From sequence record OR861627.1: a stretch of DNA of 49,337 bases; one strand, given 5' to 3'. Shown here piece after piece: positions 3,977 through 42,322 of this stretch; position 1 is the stretch's first letter, and each line of letters opens with the position of its first letter. The notes under the pieces are model-generated. The model had not been told where the DNA came from. It saw only the letters and a list, made by a program, of their open reading frames with translations, and searched no databases. The position numbers and the translations under genes are program-made. This DNA comes from Escherichia phage phiD2-2.

Positions 3977-4393
3977 TTATAAGTATTTGGCCTCAAAGGT
4001 TGTGCCGTCAGCTATGCTAAAACCGATCTCTTCGCGAAACAATGTCCAACGGCAACCATCCTCATCAAAAATATAACCAGCTACGCCGCCGAGAGCGCGA
4101 CCGCTTTCCACCTGGTAACGCTTGCCAAGTTTGAATGATTTTTTCATCGGATTACGATGGTCAAGCCCGGTGCACTTGAGCGTCTTTGTTTTCAACTCAG
4201 CGAACTTCGCGAAGAAGATTTCATCAGATCCGTGAATCTGTAATTCATCATGCTTTTCAAGTTTTAAATACTTTCCGCATTTTAATTTTACTTCGCGAGT
4301 GCCATCATAGCGCTCACGACCTTTGTACAGGTTGTTTACTTCAAATCCTGTGATTTTATCTGCGGAAGTACATTTAAGTTTGATGGATTTCAT
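3977..4393 (-). CDS. hypothetical protein (138 aa)
   Basis: Track ORF preceded by conserved leader CCAATCAGGAG and a boundary cassette. Confidence 0.6.
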   Translation of the reverse strand: MKSIKLKCTSADKITGFEVNNLYKGRERYDGTREVKLKCGKYLKLEKHDELQIHGSDEIFFAKFAELKTKTLKCTGLDHRNPMKKSFKLGKRYQVESGRALGGVAGYIFDEDGCRWTLFREEIGFSIADGTTFEAKYL

Positions 4394-4472
4394 TGCGTTA
4401 GCTCCTGATTGGTTATCTTGAATAAGGTCACTTTATCAAATGACCTTACGGCAATATTAACAAATCGTGCTA
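4394..4472 (-). promoter_or_regulatory. gene-boundary cassette
   Basis: TAGCACGATTTGTTAA, hairpin AAGGTCA/TGACCTT enclosing TGaTAAAGT, CCAATCAGGAG leader. Confidence 0.5.
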
Positions 4473-6712: not shown

Positions 6713-7261
6713 TCAGAGGTCCCAAAGACAAGTTTTCTTCGGGTAAGCATCTCGCGGCGCAATATACATCGGGAACCAGGGGTGTGAGTCATTCTCAGGA
6801 AGATAGCCGCCATACTCCCAGGGATTGAAGGAGTGATTTGGTTTTCTCCACGCAGACGACAGGGCGCTCACCGGATTCTCAATGATGTAAGTCACGCCCA
6901 GGCTATCTCCAATGTTCGCAGCAATCCGGGCACTAGCGACAGCCTTCTCCTGGAATAACGGATCGCGTTCACGCTTGCTGGCAAAGTGTCGCGCACCACT
7001 AACAGCCAGGTCAGTGCACGGCGGGAAAGCCATAATGAAATCCGGCTTGCCATACACGCCAGCGATAGCATCACGTTCGAACGTTTCATCAATGAACACG
7101 TTCACATACTCAATGTTCGGATGCTCCACTCTGGCATTGTACTTTTCGTAATCTCCGTGATCGGCTCCGTCAAAGTTGAAGCACATCACCTTATGACCTT
7201 GCTTAGCCAGTTCATGACCTGCAAGACCGGAACCGTCAAATAGCGACCAGATTAATTTCAT
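6713..7261 (-). CDS. DNA cytosine-C5 methyltransferase-like protein, unusually short (182 aa), possibly frameshifted
   Basis: Motif I-like LFDGSGL, motif IV-like FPPCTDLAVSG (PC dipeptide, Q replaced by T), motif VI-like IIENPV; AAGAGG RBS. Overlapping frame 6556..6813 carries an RRKLVFG stretch that resembles motif VIII. Confidence 0.5.
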   Translation of the reverse strand: MKLIWSLFDGSGLAGHELAKQGHKVMCFNFDGADHGDYEKYNARVEHPNIEYVNVFIDETFERDAIAGVYGKPDFIMAFPPCTDLAVSGARHFASKRERDPLFQEKAVASARIAANIGDSLGVTYIIENPVSALSSAWRKPNHSFNPWEYGGYLPENDSHPWFPMYIAPRDAYPKKTCLWDL

Positions 7262-7470
7262 TTCGTTACCTCTTTGAATACCGTCTGCCCGTTATTGGTC
7301 AGGAAGCGATCCCATCCATTCATTGAGCGGAAAACGCCGATCTGATTTTGCTGATTGTCAGTAGCGAAGTACCCACCATCAATAAGGTAGATCTCATACA
7401 CTGATTGATTCGTGAAGCTGTCGGTGCTAACGCTAATGCATTGCACGGCACATTCAAATTTTGGTTCCAT
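7258..7470 (-). CDS. hypothetical protein (70 aa), first gene of the leftward early operon
   Basis: Track ORF preceded by CCAATCAGAGGAAT leader and cassette; stop overlaps the methyltransferase-like gene start. Confidence 0.55.
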   Translation of the reverse strand: MEPKFECAVQCISVSTDSFTNQSVYEIYLIDGGYFATDNQQNQIGVFRSMNGWDRFLTNNGQTVFKEVTK

Positions 7471-7546
7471 TGCGTGATTCCTCTGATTGGTTGATGAGGT
7501 GAATCATACCCGATCGGCAGGACTGATGTGTGGCAAAAAATGCTAT
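7471..7546 (-). promoter_or_regulatory. gene-boundary cassette heading the leftward early operon
   Basis: ATAGCATTTTTTGCC, TATGAT, CATCAACCAATCAGAGGAAT leader. Confidence 0.5.
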
Positions 7547-8154: not shown

Positions 8155-8670
8155 ATGAGCAACACCAATCAGGAATTAAAAATCACCGATATGATTCGAC
8201 TAACCTGCGATGCAATGTATCGCGACAAAGGCATGAATGAGTTCTCTTTCGTGGCTGATGATATGGCCCTCGAGGCCGCGCGATTCTACTTCCGTGACCA
8301 GGAGGTAAGTGATAGCGATCTTGAATCTGCCGCTGCCGGATGGGTGGACCAGAACCAGGGTGAGGTGGAGAAGCGATTCAAGTCTGCTTTCATTACGCCA
8401 ATCATTACCCGGCACTTTTGCAAGTATGGCAAGGTGGCAAAGGTGAAGGTAGGCCGGAATGACGCTGCAATCACAATGATAACGGTTATCGTTACCGACG
8501 AAGAGATTCCCGTGAAGAAGCGCCGCAGCCGGAAAAAAGTTAGCCTGGCCGACTGCCTGGATTCGTTTGATGTTGATGTTGGCAAGCTATCGGATAGCGA
8601 GTTAATGGTTCGCGACGTGAATGAGATCGTACGCCAGATGAAAGCACATATCGAAAAGTGCGGGCTGTAA
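8155..8670 (+). CDS. hypothetical protein (171 aa), first rightward early gene
   Basis: Track ORF with AAGAGGG RBS; acidic patches. Confidence 0.6.
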   Translation: MSNTNQELKITDMIRLTCDAMYRDKGMNEFSFVADDMALEAARFYFRDQEVSDSDLESAAAGWVDQNQGEVEKRFKSAFITPIITRHFCKYGKVAKVKVGRNDAAITMITVIVTDEEIPVKKRRSRKKVSLADCLDSFDVDVGKLSDSELMVRDVNEIVRQMKAHIEKCGL

Positions 8671-8684
8671 CGCTGATAGGTGAA

Positions 8685-8760
8685 ATAGCACTTTTTGTTA
8701 AAGCCCGGTCGAGCGGATCGGGTATTATCTTCTCATTGACACGATACAGAGGAATCGAAG
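8685..8760 (+). promoter_or_regulatory. gene-boundary cassette
   Basis: ATAGCACTTTTTGTTAAAG, hairpin CCCGG..CGGG, TATTAT, CAGAGGAAT. Confidence 0.5.
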
Positions 8761-8955
8761 ATGGAAACGCAAATTGACGTAGTGGTTGTTCAGCGAGACT
8801 CAACTCATGAAAAGGGTCTGTTCAAGAAAGGAACCGAAATCACGATCGACCTTGAGGATATGGTTGCGTATCACTCTGGCCTCACTTGGAACGTGGTGCG
8901 CGTAGGCAGCGACTACAAACTCAAAGGCTTTAACACTTACTTTGCGGAGGTTTAA
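8761..8955 (+). CDS. hypothetical protein (64 aa)
   Basis: Track ORF with cassette and GAGGAA RBS upstream. Confidence 0.55.
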   Translation: METQIDVVVVQRDSTHEKGLFKKGTEITIDLEDMVAYHSGLTWNVVRVGSDYKLKGFNTYFAEV

Positions 8956-8957
8956 TT

Positions 8958-9428
8958 ATGGCGACAATTACCGTATTTCTTGCTAAAGATGAGCTTGATG
9001 GCGAAATGTCATTCTTCGCGTTTGAGCATAAAACCGGCTCGCACTGGCACACTTACAGCCATTACACGGTTATCTCAATTGAAGCGTACGACGGCGAACT
9101 GCTCACTGATAAACTGAGTAATTTCATTGAAGCCGTTAAAGCTAGCGGCGGCTGCGAGTGGAAGGAAGATCACGAAGTTATGCGAATGTTTGAGATGGTC
9201 AATCCGGTTCGCCTTGAGTCGTTCGAGCTTGATGCTAATGTGACTATCAAGGTGAGAAAGTCGGGTGAGTTATTGCCAGGGATGCGTGTACTGACTGGTT
9301 ACTCTGGCCGTAAGGTGTGGCGCACTGTATCCAAGATTCGCCAGCGCTCGGCAACATGCTATAGCGTATTCTTTGATGATGGTTGGAATATGATGTCCGG
9401 TAGTGAGGTAAAGTATCTCACCAAATAG
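8958..9428 (+). CDS. hypothetical protein (156 aa)
   Basis: Track ORF with GGAGG RBS; TAG stop lies inside the downstream palindrome. Confidence 0.6.
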   Translation: MATITVFLAKDELDGEMSFFAFEHKTGSHWHTYSHYTVISIEAYDGELLTDKLSNFIEAVKASGGCEWKEDHEVMRMFEMVNPVRLESFELDANVTIKVRKSGELLPGMRVLTGYSGRKVWRTVSKIRQRSATCYSVFFDDGWNMMSGSEVKYLTK

Positions 9429-10520: not shown

Positions 10521-11009
10521 ATGAAAATCAAATTAATTTGCACTGGCGGTTACAAGGGATTTACCCGAGATCTGGAAGCGGACCCTATCGTGGTTGATGC
10601 GGTGAAGTGTGATTCCAGTACTGGAGGCTACCGTGTTAAGGTTGACGATCTGGTAAAAGCTGGCGTGTACGATCTTGATTATGGGCTTTCGGTTAGCCCG
10701 GTATTTGGTCCGGCCGACTTCAACGAGAAAGACGGAACGATGTTCTTTTTTGAGTGGGAAGTGCAAGCGAACGTCAAGCCTCGTAAGGTTCGACTTCTCA
10801 ACAATGGCGGCTACCCGATGAGACCAGGTTATGAGAATCGCACGTTCCCAGTTATTGTGGACTTCACCGAAATCACTAACAAACTGGTCTACGTCAGCAA
10901 TGAGCATTTCCAGGCTGTAGGATTCACTGGCGGTATGCATAAAGAAGCGCTGTGCTTCGTTCGAGAAGAAATGCACGGTTACTATTCTGAGTGCGAGTTA
11001 GTTTACTAA
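10521..11009 (+). CDS. hypothetical protein (162 aa)
   Basis: Track ORF with cassette and GAGGA RBS. Confidence 0.6.
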   Translation: MKIKLICTGGYKGFTRDLEADPIVVDAVKCDSSTGGYRVKVDDLVKAGVYDLDYGLSVSPVFGPADFNEKDGTMFFFEWEVQANVKPRKVRLLNNGGYPMRPGYENRTFPVIVDFTEITNKLVYVSNEHFQAVGFTGGMHKEALCFVREEMHGYYSECELVY

Positions 11010-11587: not shown

Positions 11588-11736
11588 TGGCTGCGTGGGT
11601 CTTGATTATCTTGATGAGTACCGGTCCGGATCACGTATACATGGAAAGTCAGCAATCATGCAACAAGGCTCGGGAGGTGATTTCAGAGAACAAGCCGTTC
11701 GGATACGAAGTAAAAACGATGTGCGTTAAACGATAG
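11587..11736 (+). CDS. small membrane protein (about 49 aa)
   Basis: Hand-translated; ATG overlaps upstream TAA; hydrophobic N-terminus (AAWVLIILMSTG); TAG stop inside the 11733 palindrome. Confidence 0.35.
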   Translation: MAAWVLIILMSTGPDHVYMESQQSCNKAREVISENKPFGYEVKTMCVKR

Positions 11737-11816
11737 CACGAATTGCTAAACCTTCCGCAAGGCCATTTGATATAGTGGCCTTATTGAAGCAGAGCGACCA
11801 ATCAGAGGAATCGGCT
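11733..11816 (+). promoter_or_regulatory. gene-boundary cassette
   Basis: ATAGCACGAATTGCTAAAC, hairpin AAGGCCA/TGGCCTT enclosing TGaTATAGT, CCAATCAGAGGAAT. Confidence 0.6.
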
Positions 11817-12116: not shown

Positions 12117-12400
12117 GCAAAACTCATAAGTTAAAAATCGCCCCTGTACATTTCATTGGTGTAATGAACGGAACCAAAACGGCAGAGTTCCGCATCAATG
12201 ACCGAAACTTCCAATCTGGCGATATCCTGGAGCTATGCGAGTTCGATCGAGATGAGTTTACCGGGTGGGAAGTTCACGCCAGGGTATCCGATGTTACCGA
12301 TGTGACGCCATACATCAATCGCGGGTATGACGAGCAAGAATGCGACTTCACGCAATACGTGATGTTATCAATCAAGCCTTACAGGAAGGTTAGACCATGA
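12113..12400 (+). CDS. ASCH/PUA-like domain protein (95 aa)
   Basis: G-x-K-x-x-E-x-R followed by GD (NGTKTAEFRINDRNFQSGDILEL) matches the ASCH signature as I recall it. Confidence 0.5.
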   Translation: MSKTHKLKIAPVHFIGVMNGTKTAEFRINDRNFQSGDILELCEFDRDEFTGWEVHARVSDVTDVTPYINRGYDEQECDFTQYVMLSIKPYRKVRP

Positions 12401-13035
12401 AATTTGAATGTGTGCTTAGTAACGGATCTGGATTTAAGTACGGCAAAATCTACGAAGGCGCTCGCGTCAATTGCAACAGCTTCGTTATCACGGATGAGCG
12501 CGGTAGAAATGTTAACGTTGTCCGGCGTCACGAATACCAGGAAATTTTCCTGCCGTACGGCAATAGTTCAAAATACATCTTCCATCGAATCGTTGATGGT
12601 GTTAAATTTAAAGACGTAATCGAAGCAATCAACCAACTTCATAATAAAGAGGTAAAATTTATGAAATTCGAATGTATCAGCGATAACACCAAAAAATTTA
12701 CTGTTGGCAAAATTTACGATGTTCCCTCTGAGCACGCTAAGCACACGGCTGTAATTACCGACGACACGGGCCGCCACCGCATTGCAACCGTAACGCACAA
12801 CGGTGAAGGTCTTCGCTGGAATAGCGGCGGCACTAAGTTCGCAACGTTCGGCAAGAAGCGCAAGCGCACTTTCTGCGTCAAGGGCAATGTTGCGGCGAAC
12901 AAGACCCACAACGACAAGGCGTCACAAGTTGACCGCAAGCCAGCATTGAAGTTTGAAGAGAAAGCGGATTTATCCGGCCTGGCTGTTGCGCTTGTTCTCC
13001 TGGTAGCTTCGATTTCGCTGATGTTCATCATGTAA
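12397..13035 (+). CDS. membrane-anchored protein with tandem duplicated domain (212 aa)
   Basis: Two copies of an MKFEC...GKIY...ITD..GR module starting at residues 1 and 89; C-terminal TM helix LAVALVLLVASISLMFIM; internal ATG at about 12661 has its own AAAGAGG RBS. Confidence 0.6.
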   Translation: MKFECVLSNGSGFKYGKIYEGARVNCNSFVITDERGRNVNVVRRHEYQEIFLPYGNSSKYIFHRIVDGVKFKDVIEAINQLHNKEVKFMKFECISDNTKKFTVGKIYDVPSEHAKHTAVITDDTGRHRIATVTHNGEGLRWNSGGTKFATFGKKRKRTFCVKGNVAANKTHNDKASQVDRKPALKFEEKADLSGLAVALVLLVASISLMFIM

Positions 13036-13040
13036 TTTTA

Positions 13041-13076
13041 ACGGGGAATCGGATCTGAACGGTTCCCCTTTCTTTT
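13041..13076 (+). terminator. rho-independent terminator
   Basis: Stem GGGGAA/TTCCCC then TTTCTTTT. Confidence 0.6.
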
Positions 13077-13088
13077 GGAGAAAACACT

Positions 13089-13199
13089 ATGCCAGACTTT
13101 TCTAACTGGAATAACGAGCCGCCATCATTTCAGGAGTTGCTATTTTGCCTCCTGGTCCTGACATTATCTCTTAAGGGTGTTTTATGGCTACTATCATAA
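13089..13199 (+). CDS. possible small hydrophobic peptide (about 36 aa)
   Basis: Hand-translated ORF after a terminator, GGAG RBS; overlaps start of next ORF. Confidence 0.25.
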   Translation: MPDFSNWNNEPPSFQELLFCLLVLTLSLKGVLWLLS

Positions 13200-13402
13200 C
13201 CGCAGAAGATGCGGCGCGTGACGCAGTGGAAGGAATGCGCCCAAATACCTCCAGAATCGCCCACTACTACAAGTTTGAGGTGTCGGCAGTGCAATTGGTC
13301 CACGAAATTTTAAGGCTCCCACAAGTCGATTCAGCGCGAGTAGTGACGTGCTTAAAAAATTATTTTTGCATCACTATTAAAACGAATAGCACGAATTGCT
13401 AA
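13184..13402 (+). CDS. hypothetical protein (72 aa)
   Basis: Track ORF; stop is the TAA inside the 13386 palindrome. Confidence 0.45.
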   Translation: MATIITAEDAARDAVEGMRPNTSRIAHYYKFEVSAVQLVHEILRLPQVDSARVVTCLKNYFCITIKTNSTNC

Positions 13403-13469
13403 AACTTGCTCAAGGGTATTTGATAGAATGCCCTTCGTTGAGTTAAGCAACCAATCAGAGGAATAAATC
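13386..13469 (+). promoter_or_regulatory. gene-boundary cassette
   Basis: ATAGCACGAATTGCTAAAAC, hairpin AGGGTA/TGCCCT enclosing TGaTAGAAT, CCAATCAGAGGAAT. Confidence 0.6.
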
Positions 13470-14191: not shown

Positions 14192-14762
14192 GAAAACAGC
14201 TATCATTTTAAACGGCGCACCTGGAGCGGGAAAAGACACTATCGGATGCATCCTTGCTGACACTTACGATCACGTAGCCTTGCGCAGCTTCAAAGCGCCA
14301 ATGTTTGAGATTGCCAGGGCAATCCTGGGTGAAGCTAACTACGAGTATTTCATGTTCTTGTATGAGGACCGTCGATATAAAGAAGAGCCAGCATCAATCC
14401 TGAACGGTAAAAGCCCGCGCCAGTTTATGATCTGGATTAGCGAGGAAGTCATCAAGCCGCAGTTCGGAAATCGCTTCTTCGGTATGCGAGCGGAAAGCAA
14501 GGTGAAAGAGTCGCACTCCCTTTCGGTATTTACTGATGGTGGATTCAAAGACGAAATCTTGCAGATGATTGAAGGTGATATCCAGGTCAAGCTATGTCGA
14601 ATACATCGCAACGGTTGCAGCTTTGATAACGACAGCCGCGACTATATCTATCTTGACGACATGATCGGGGTTAACGGTTATCAGGAATGTGACTTCTTTT
14701 CTGTCGAAGGTCATCCAGAAATTACCGCTCAGCACATAGCCGCCACGTTCATCAATAAATAG
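14190..14762 (+). CDS. deoxynucleoside monophosphate kinase-like P-loop kinase (T4 gp1-like)
   Basis: P-loop GAPGAGKDT, FKAPMFEIARAILG and LNGKSP motifs resemble T4 gene 1 dNMP kinase from memory; GGGAGA RBS. Confidence 0.55.
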   Translation: MKTAIILNGAPGAGKDTIGCILADTYDHVALRSFKAPMFEIARAILGEANYEYFMFLYEDRRYKEEPASILNGKSPRQFMIWISEEVIKPQFGNRFFGMRAESKVKESHSLSVFTDGGFKDEILQMIEGDIQVKLCRIHRNGCSFDNDSRDYIYLDDMIGVNGYQECDFFSVEGHPEITAQHIAATFINK

Positions 14763-14834
14763 CACGAATTGCTAAAACGTCGATGGGGTGATTTGATATA
14801 GTTACCTCATCGACAACGAAGAGAGAAAATCTAA
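14760..14834 (+). promoter_or_regulatory. gene-boundary cassette
   Basis: TAGCACGAATTGCTAAAAC, hairpin enclosing TGaTATAGT, CATCGACAACGAAGAGAG. Confidence 0.6.
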
Positions 14835-15400: not shown

Positions 15401-15614
15401 AGCGGAATGGAACGTGGTAAAGCGCGCGGCGAAGGAATTAAATAAATTCGTCAGTGGCATGAAGAAAGAAGATCGGAAAAACGACAAGATCATGATTGAC
15501 GTTATTTCTACTCACCACAAAAAGGTCGAATTACTCATCGATCGCTACAAATTTGTCTGGACTGCCGGGTATATTGCCGGGCGCGTAGGTAACAAAGAAG
15601 GGGATTACGAATAA
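15384..15614 (+). CDS. hypothetical protein (76 aa)
   Basis: Track ORF with GGAGAGG RBS. Confidence 0.5.
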   Translation: MFGLSEAEWNVVKRAAKELNKFVSGMKKEDRKNDKIMIDVISTHHKKVELLIDRYKFVWTAGYIAGRVGNKEGDYE

Positions 15615-15817
15615 TGGCTAATTTACCGAAGAAAGGAGATCAGGTTCGATGCATCACTTCACGTAATGGCGATGCTTTCTCAGCTGGGTGCTTGTATGAC
15701 GTTGAAAAAGTCAGTAAAGCAAAGAGGCTCGTATATGTGTACGGCGACGATGGAAACCTGCATGAGATTAATTACCCGCAGGATATGACTAAGGGTCAAT
15801 TTGAAATTAATGATTGA
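15614..15817 (+). CDS. hypothetical protein (67 aa)
   Basis: Track ORF with ATAATGG start overlap. Confidence 0.5.
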   Translation: MANLPKKGDQVRCITSRNGDAFSAGCLYDVEKVSKAKRLVYVYGDDGNLHEINYPQDMTKGQFEIND

Positions 15818-42283: not shown

Positions 42284-42322
42284 AATATAAACTCCTTAAG
42301 TAAATAGCACGAATTGCTAAAC
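42284..42322 (-). promoter_or_regulatory. palindrome in operator-like position in the tail-fibre leader
   Basis: TTTAGCAATTCGTGCTATTT lies between the predicted promoter and the AAGGAG RBS. Confidence 0.45.

Follow-up and report, generated by a model that had tools for sequence, protein, structure and literature searches.

The open reading frame at positions 12397..13035 (+) of the window (the whole 49,337-nucleotide stretch of Escherichia phage phiD2-2, record OR861627.1, that was analysed) encodes a 212-residue protein in which two diverged copies of a small module, each predicted to fold as a six-stranded β-barrel, precede a basic tether and a C-terminal transmembrane (TM) helix. Taken as a whole, the gene is best explained as the Tunavirus version of T1 orf68, to which a barrel was fused upstream and which would be read from two starts, an explanation that we hold with moderate confidence. 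Sequence comparison establishes how the protein is built, that its two modules are homologous, in which direction the gene evolved and that the signals for internal initiation are conserved.

The 2-kb stretch around the ORF is 99.9% identical to Escherichia phage FCWL1 and 88–97% identical to many other Tunavirus (T1-like, Drexlerviridae) phages; the ORF corresponds to FCWL1 gp13 and to JMPW2 gp11, both annotated as hypothetical proteins. It lies in a left-arm block of small accessory ORFs on the same strand, upstream of the terminase, between an ASCH gene and a polynucleotide kinase gene; the host-takeover region in which the original prediction had placed it is not supported. The local order is a repeat copy at 11735, gp11, the ASCH/DUF3850 gene, the ORF, a terminator, two tiny ORFs, a further repeat copy and the gene for polynucleotide kinase/phosphatase (PNKP). 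The elements that frame the ORF are:

11735..11750 (+), copy of the T1-family intergenic direct repeat AGCACGAATTGCTAAA, identified from repeat counts and a match to phage TLS
12113..12400 (+), gene for an ASCH/DUF3850 RNA-binding-like protein (Pfam PF12961, E 3.5e-16; phrog_986)
12383..12389 (+), Shine–Dalgarno (SD) sequence of the first start, AGGAAGG, 7 nt before the ATG at 12397 (anti-SD duplex −7.2 kcal/mol)
12397..13035 (+), full ORF, 212 aa plus stop (phrog_10580, E 4.9e-132 over residues 1–212 of 212, hmmscan)
13043..13078 (+), rho-independent terminator directly 3′ of the gene, a 9-bp GC-rich stem followed by a T-tract

The repeat at 11735..11750, which is followed by a hairpin (11758–11781) and then a leader, is likely to be the head of a transcription unit comprising gp11, the ASCH gene and the ORF. 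The TGA stop of the ASCH gene overlaps the ATG at 12397 (ATGA), and a terminator after the gene is also annotated in T1, SA30RD and Chapo. The AGCACGAATTGCTAAA motif occurs in 19 copies in the window versus 0.74 expected (at 11735–11750, 13388–13403, 14761–14776 and 42306–42321, plus about 15 degenerate ones); it has a palindromic core, TAGCA-N5-TGCTA, and every copy is oriented with its downstream gene. In phage TLS the corresponding 21-nt direct repeat has been described as aaATAGCACnnnTTGnTAAAA (PMC11447400). Note that many copies of the motif are followed by a hairpin whose stem differs from copy to copy but whose loop keeps a −10-like TATAGT/TATAAT, and that about half of these hairpins also carry a common leader, ACCAATCAGAGG; such variable stems around a conserved −10-like loop appear to have found no explanation so far.

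The protein itself was originally described as a tandem duplicated module anchored by a single C-terminal TM helix, and both points were borne out. The self-alignment on which the repeat was to stand or fall matches residues 1–39 with residues 89–128 at a score of 76, versus 24.7±4.1 in shuffled sequences (0/2000 shuffles reach 76). Family profiles of the two modules align over 50 columns (hhalign, probability 94.7%, E 5.9e-8), and each module HMM retrieves the other module among the 863 six-frame ORFs of the window (i-E 5e-5 to 7e-5). The self-similarity of the two halves is thus that of a tandem internal domain duplication. The modules are about 36% identical, with their similarity confined to 40–50 aa; the structural unit is a six-stranded barrel of about 60–65 aa and 88 aa is the spacing between copies, which replaces the module of about 85 aa first proposed. 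The long form is laid out as follows:

12397..12660 (+), module 1 (aa 1–88), predicted six-stranded β-barrel (aa 2–66) and α-helix (aa 71–82), from the AF2 model
12661..12855 (+), module 2 (aa 89–153), predicted six-stranded β-barrel, the conserved core of the family
12856..12969 (+), disordered K/R-rich tether (aa 154–191), with pLDDT below 50 at 154–191
12970..13032 (+), C-terminal TM helix, the predicted tail anchor (aa 192–212), at the hydropathy maximum

The sole hydrophobic segment is formed by the C-terminal 21 residues, with 0 residues beyond it, and the N-terminus is non-hydrophobic; the segment is helical in both AF2 models. At the level of sequence and model, the protein therefore has the traits of a tail-anchored protein: a single TM segment at its extreme C-terminus, no N-terminal signal sequence and a bulk predicted to be cytoplasmic. 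The T1 orthologue is annotated with a single TM segment, N-in/C-out. The 43 residues preceding the TM segment (150–192) contain 12 K/R versus 5 D/E, and the length of the tether differs among homologues. As an aside, the gp08 homologue encoded at 10521..11009 (+), 162 aa long, may also be an internal duplication (MKIKLICTGGY... vs RKVRLLNNGGY...): phrog_13367 matches it in two stretches and its self-alignment is borderline (7/1000 shuffles, best of several cuts). For gp09 and for the ORF at 3980–4432, self-alignment against shuffles gave no significant internal duplication.

Structure prediction of the repeat with AF2, which had also been proposed originally, yielded two six-stranded barrels. 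With a 27-sequence family alignment as input, the model (pLDDT 68.9; the models span 69–72, i.e. moderate confidence) displays six strands within residues 2–66, a helix at 71–82, six strands within residues 88–150, disorder at 154–191 and a helix at 192–211, and the models leave the mutual orientation of the two barrels undefined. The closest structural relative is Gp54 of phage Bas11 (PDB 9AXB), a non-essential 66-aa protein that directly activates the defence protein CapRel-SJ46 as a second trigger (PMC11578894), and whose crystal structure is a six-stranded barrel with a prominent β1–β2 loop, a topology termed very rare (PMC11578894). In the predicted structure both modules are small six-stranded barrels with a prominent β1–β2 loop, and their strand pattern agrees with the description of Gp54. 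No sequence homology connects the modules with Gp54: phmmer against PDB sequences gave no hit, and the module HMMs gave no significant hit on Gp54, which belongs to phrog_7421 while the modules belong to phrog_10580. The modules thus have a predicted Gp54-like fold without a sequence relation, so the protein is not a member of the Gp54 family; moreover, Gp54 consists of one soluble 66-aa domain, whereas here the barrels stand in tandem on a predicted membrane tether. SH3 domains also appear among the structural matches, with Z scores of ≤4.8 and ≤3.6, far below Gp54; SH3 and SH3-like small barrels have five strands versus six here, and no SH3 Pfam family matched.

Searches with the protein against Pfam, NCBIfam, PADLOC and PDB sequences gave nothing above threshold. 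Foldseek against BFVD returned many phage proteins with single or tandem similar barrels, all of them uncharacterised, and the literature on these phages, on T1 transcriptomes and on tail-anchored phage proteins yielded nothing on this gene. The window also contains, at 8761..8955 (+), a 64-aa ORF (METQIDVVVVQRDSTHEKGLFKKGTEITIDLEDMVAYHSGLTW...) that is a clear homologue of Gp54(Bas11) (phmmer, E 3.9e-16); the phage therefore has a true Gp54 homologue besides the Gp54-like barrels of ORF 12397..13035. For two weak paralogue candidates, the ORFs at 7261–7503 (−) and 15593–15814, searches against PDB sequences gave chance hits only.

The family is small. A word-indexed search collected 44 clusters (90% identity); 1.84 billion representatives, scanned exhaustively with HMMER, contained only 7 clusters (50% identity), all from T1-like phages; and a metagenome scan added 5 further loci only. 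Residues 89–212 are 82% identical to T1 orf68 (CPTT1_010, AAP49932, 124 aa), and the distant members P0046/IME347 (Badaguanvirus), P0048, P0049 and P0050 are 29–41% identical to the same residues. Each of P0046, P0048, P0049 and P0050 consists of one barrel, a linker and a C-terminal TM segment. The window gene has the core layout of phrog_10580 (cytoplasmic barrel, tether, C-terminal TM segment and matching genome position) and adds an N-terminal module. This position is shared: P0048, P0049 and P0050 come from T1-like contigs of about 50 kb in which they lie at the position of the window gene; in IME347, to which P0046 is similar, the order is ASCH, gene, PNKP; and in the loci L031 and L032 the single-module gene has DUF3850 directly upstream and PNKP downstream (at L029, no DUF3850 or PNKP hit was recorded). 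In T1, IME347, L031 and L032, the repeat, a hairpin and an SD directly precede the single-module gene; at L029 the repeat is absent from the 100 nt examined upstream.

Module 1 is absent from all distant homologues and has no stand-alone gene among the 1.84 billion representatives, and the proteins that match it alone (P0045 and P0047) are frameshifted fragments of two-module genes. Since all distant homologues have a single barrel, the one-barrel form is ancestral and module 1 is an N-terminal addition, which the comparison of genomes shows to be specific to a Tunavirus subclade. It most likely arose by partial duplication, in tandem, of the gene's 5′ portion. Module 1 scores 51–88 against every orthologous barrel, versus 86–217 for the orthologues against each other, making it the most diverged member of the whole family. 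Acquisition from another phage's allele is not supported, module 1 being about equally distant from all orthologues. The two-module form is common to lineages with a mean dS of about 0.8; together with the divergence of module 1, this indicates that the addition is old. Hence, of the recent gene fusion or duplication suggested at the outset, the fusion or duplication stands and its recency does not. Both modules are under purifying selection, module 1 less tightly (dN/dS 0.23, versus 0.06 for module 2), and the 29 unique two-module genes all lack a stop codon between the modules; the long form is thus maintained as well.

Two metagenomic two-module loci, L024 (543–630) and L025 (627–713), carry between the ASCH gene and the gene an AT-rich degenerate relic of the module 1 tail (ATGAAAATACATCTTCCATAAAATAATG...), flanked by direct repeats GTGAAACCATGAAA, which indicates repeated unequal recombination at the locus.

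At the boundary between the modules lies a second set of initiation signals, as originally noted:

12646..12652 (+), internal SD, AAAGAGG, doubling as the codons K84-E85-V86 (duplex −7.1 kcal/mol)
12661..13035 (+), nested in-frame ORF for a putative 124-aa short isoform (barrel 2, linker and TM segment), orthologous to T1 orf68 (CPTT1_010)

The internal ATG (12661–12663) is separated from AAAGAGG by a spacer of 8 nt, and the duplex of the internal site with the anti-SD compares with −7.2 kcal/mol at the annotated start and about −6 kcal/mol for neighbouring genes. Among the long ORFs of the window, only 7/300 internal in-frame ATGs have an SD this strong, and several of these 7 resemble true gene starts. 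The mRNA is accessible at the internal start, with a mean unpaired probability of 0.625 versus 0.467±0.074, in the top 2.7% of the gene. A promoter scan inside the gene revealed no internal σ70 promoter for the short form, and no credible −35/−10 pair was seen by visual inspection.

The suggestion that a shorter isoform could be made receives strong support from related phages. T1 lacks gp11, the ASCH gene and module 1; its orf68, with an annotated RBS, starts at the equivalent SD and ATG, and upstream of the junction T1 matches the gp10–gp11 intergenic region of the window exactly. Chapo and two metagenomic contigs (L026 and L027) have lost codons ~1–58, retaining the ASCH stop, a 29-codon relic without a plausible start, and then AAAGAGG and the ATG. 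In T1, Chapo and the metagenomic deletion variants, AAAGAGG plus ATG is thus the sole start, and in these module-1-less phages the 124-aa ORF is intact, with a dN/dS of 0.14–0.28 versus the window. Given that an intact, selected 124-aa ORF persists in T1- and Chapo-type phages, AAAGAGG and the ATG suffice for its expression. Within the 29 unique two-module genes, the ATG is kept in 29/29, the SD heptamer in 28/29 (the exception, L025, has AAAGATG) and the spacer length is constant, while the sequence of the 8-nt spacer and codons 82–83 vary, including non-synonymous changes. Synonymous diversity in codons 82–88 is 0.039 versus a gene mean of 0.23, which ranks first of 148 seven-codon windows (P about 0.001, codon resampling). 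An antisense ORF at 12568..12909 was rejected as the cause of this conservation, being open in only 24/29 homologues.

Altogether, the internal start is probably a retained, working initiation site that yields a 124-aa isoform. That both the 212-aa and the 124-aa products are made in two-module phages, as the comparison suggests, we consider rather likely; the window gene is then likely a nested gene, and the 124-aa product would be a candidate for addition to the annotation.

The main alternative is that only the 212-aa protein is made, AAAGAGG and the ATG being an inert relic of the fusion that was kept by a need for the residues or by recent coalescence. This has some appeal. Structurally, barrel 2 begins with M89, and the family as a whole keeps MK.EC; furthermore, the whole tail of module 1 (codons 59–88) is low in both dS and dN with an unchanged dN/dS (0.21), and the low diversity near the start could therefore stem in part from a younger coalescence or from recombination, and not from selection for the SD. 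However, the residues near the SD do vary (H82N, N83S, V86A, K87R/E and F88T), while the single change in the heptamer is not synonymous, and GAG, a minority Glu codon (67 GAG versus 123 GAA in the gene), is yet fixed at E85. The internal site also equals the first start in strength and lies in the most accessible part of the mRNA, and in T1 and Chapo-type phages the same signals suffice as the sole start of an intact and selected gene. We regard the alternative as unlikely.

According to the two-start explanation that we favour, the ancestral gene would have encoded one cytoplasmic six-stranded Gp54(Bas11)-like barrel, a basic disordered tether and an extreme C-terminal TM segment (N-in), and would have followed an ASCH gene, from which a repeat/hairpin/SD cassette of its own separated it. 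In the window's lineage, a second barrel, now strongly diverged, and a short helix would have been fused in frame upstream, displacing the intergenic cassette; the old SD, spacer and ATG would have been kept, and would now encode K84-E85-V86...M89. A transcript from behind the 11735 repeat would cover gp11, the ASCH gene and the ORF, and would end at the terminator. Ribosomes finishing the ASCH gene would restart at 12397 and produce the two-barrel form of 212 aa, and de novo ribosome binding at AAAGAGG would lead to a start at 12661 and to the one-barrel form of 124 aa, the equivalent of T1 orf68. Both forms would be inserted N-in and tail-anchored, with their barrels on a flexible, positively charged tether; since the tether and the TM segment are common to both isoforms, both would reside at the cytoplasmic face of the inner membrane.

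A more elaborate reading, which we find distinctly doubtful, holds that the last ~35–45 nt of module 1 are a former leader and SD turned coding, that the isoforms co-assemble and that the extra barrel could mask a surface. More specifically, the ancestral 5′ leader and SD would survive as 12617–12660 (roughly E76–F88, where the linker helix ends), read through by the duplicated barrel; identical nucleotides would then both encode the linker and bind ribosomes, and the phage would produce a fixed mixture of two- and one-barrel tail-anchored forms. The extra barrel could then mask or diversify the surface that CapRel-type sensors see in Gp54-like barrels.

As to function, we can offer only a guess, with low confidence: the barrels may bind a host or defence protein and hold this partner at the membrane, and the protein may be a non-essential accessory factor for host interaction or anti-defence at the cytoplasmic face of the membrane. 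This guess follows from the nature of the only structural relative, a dispensable small barrel whose binding partner is a host immunity protein, from the location of the gene among accessory genes (ASCH, PNKP) and from the repeated loss of module 1. A role in the timing of lysis, or in blocking the DNA of superinfecting phages at the inner membrane, with the long and short forms as an antagonist pair like λ S107/S105, we grade as weaker and consider very unlikely. In favour of such a role, the gene codes for a small membrane protein whose two putative nested products have one TM segment in common, the losses of module 1 suggest that it is partly dispensable, and holins are known for dual-start control, a dual start having been proposed for the TLS holin (PMC11447400). 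Yet in related genomes about 30 kb separate the gene from the holin/endolysin/spanin cluster (Bas11; T1 per PMC11447400), the protein has no predicted periplasmic exposure, so that it could not meet incoming tail proteins there, and the isoforms differ by a whole folded domain and not by a charged residue adjacent to the TM segment.

That the modules are two separate genes, joined into one frame by an error of sequencing or annotation or by a chance fusion of very recent date in this phage, is scarcely credible: the internal SD and ATG, with an out-of-frame TAATAA (12642–12647) just upstream, do resemble a normal gene boundary, and several database entries are frameshifted (vB_SsoS_008, P0024, P0045 and P0047), but the junction frame is open in 29/29 unique sequences from independent isolates and metagenomes that span a dS of about 0.8, module 1 never stands alone, and the TAATAA frame has no upstream ORF, which also led us to reject a frameshift fusion through it. 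In Shigella phage vB_SsoS_008 (L005, 1501–2112), several frameshifts interrupt the orthologue, whose annotation comprises three small ORFs and one antisense ORF; this reflects either a pseudogene or sequencing errors.

The window protein is a member of the T1 orf68/phrog_10580 family with an extra domain, i.e. a new architectural variant. Both genes have the SD, the ATG, the basic tether, the C-terminal TM segment and a terminator directly downstream; T1 orf68 has one barrel and no gp11 or ASCH gene upstream, whereas the window protein adds an N-terminal barrel and helix. Nested in-frame genes with an internal SD and start are well established in phages: for T7 gene 4A/4B, λ C/Nu3, ϕX174 A/A* and λ S107/S105, both products have been demonstrated experimentally. 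The window gene resembles them in having one frame, two initiation sites and a short product that is the C-terminal part of the long one; it differs in that the short product is here deduced by comparison and in that the internal site can be traced to the start of an ancestral shorter gene. Tail anchoring also has counterparts in the host, since E. coli ElaB, YqjD and YgaM are C-tail-anchored inner-membrane proteins, helical and ribosome-associated. They share with the window protein a cytoplasmic N-terminal domain, a single TM segment at the extreme C-terminus and the absence of a signal peptide, but are unrelated to it in sequence or fold, the window protein being phage-encoded and made of predicted β-barrels.

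The locus provides a dated, stepwise example of the growth of a phage accessory gene, with natural deletion variants that serve as controls. The Gp54-type barrel, known only as a CapRel trigger, also exists in T1-like phages in variant forms, in this case as a membrane-tethered pair, which hints at a widespread use of such small barrels in building phage accessory proteins. The gene is a small, dispensable candidate for anti-defence and host-interaction screens, its practical value being modest.

Two further observations concern the variability of the region. In phage vB_EcoS_SH2 (L002, 2198–3001; window equivalent 13033–13199), the stop codon of the orthologue is lost, and the annotated 267-aa ORF runs through the terminator into a 36-aa hydrophobic ORF (window 13089..13199, T1 orf67); such read-through would add a second TM segment, and may be a real variant or a sequencing error. 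Finally, the ORF layout after the gp01 homologue differs between the window (8155–9428) and the FCWL1 record (378–1127), with an offset shift of about 450 nt. Despite their near identity at the ORF, the window and FCWL1 are thus not collinear over their whole length, and the left arm is likely to be mosaic.
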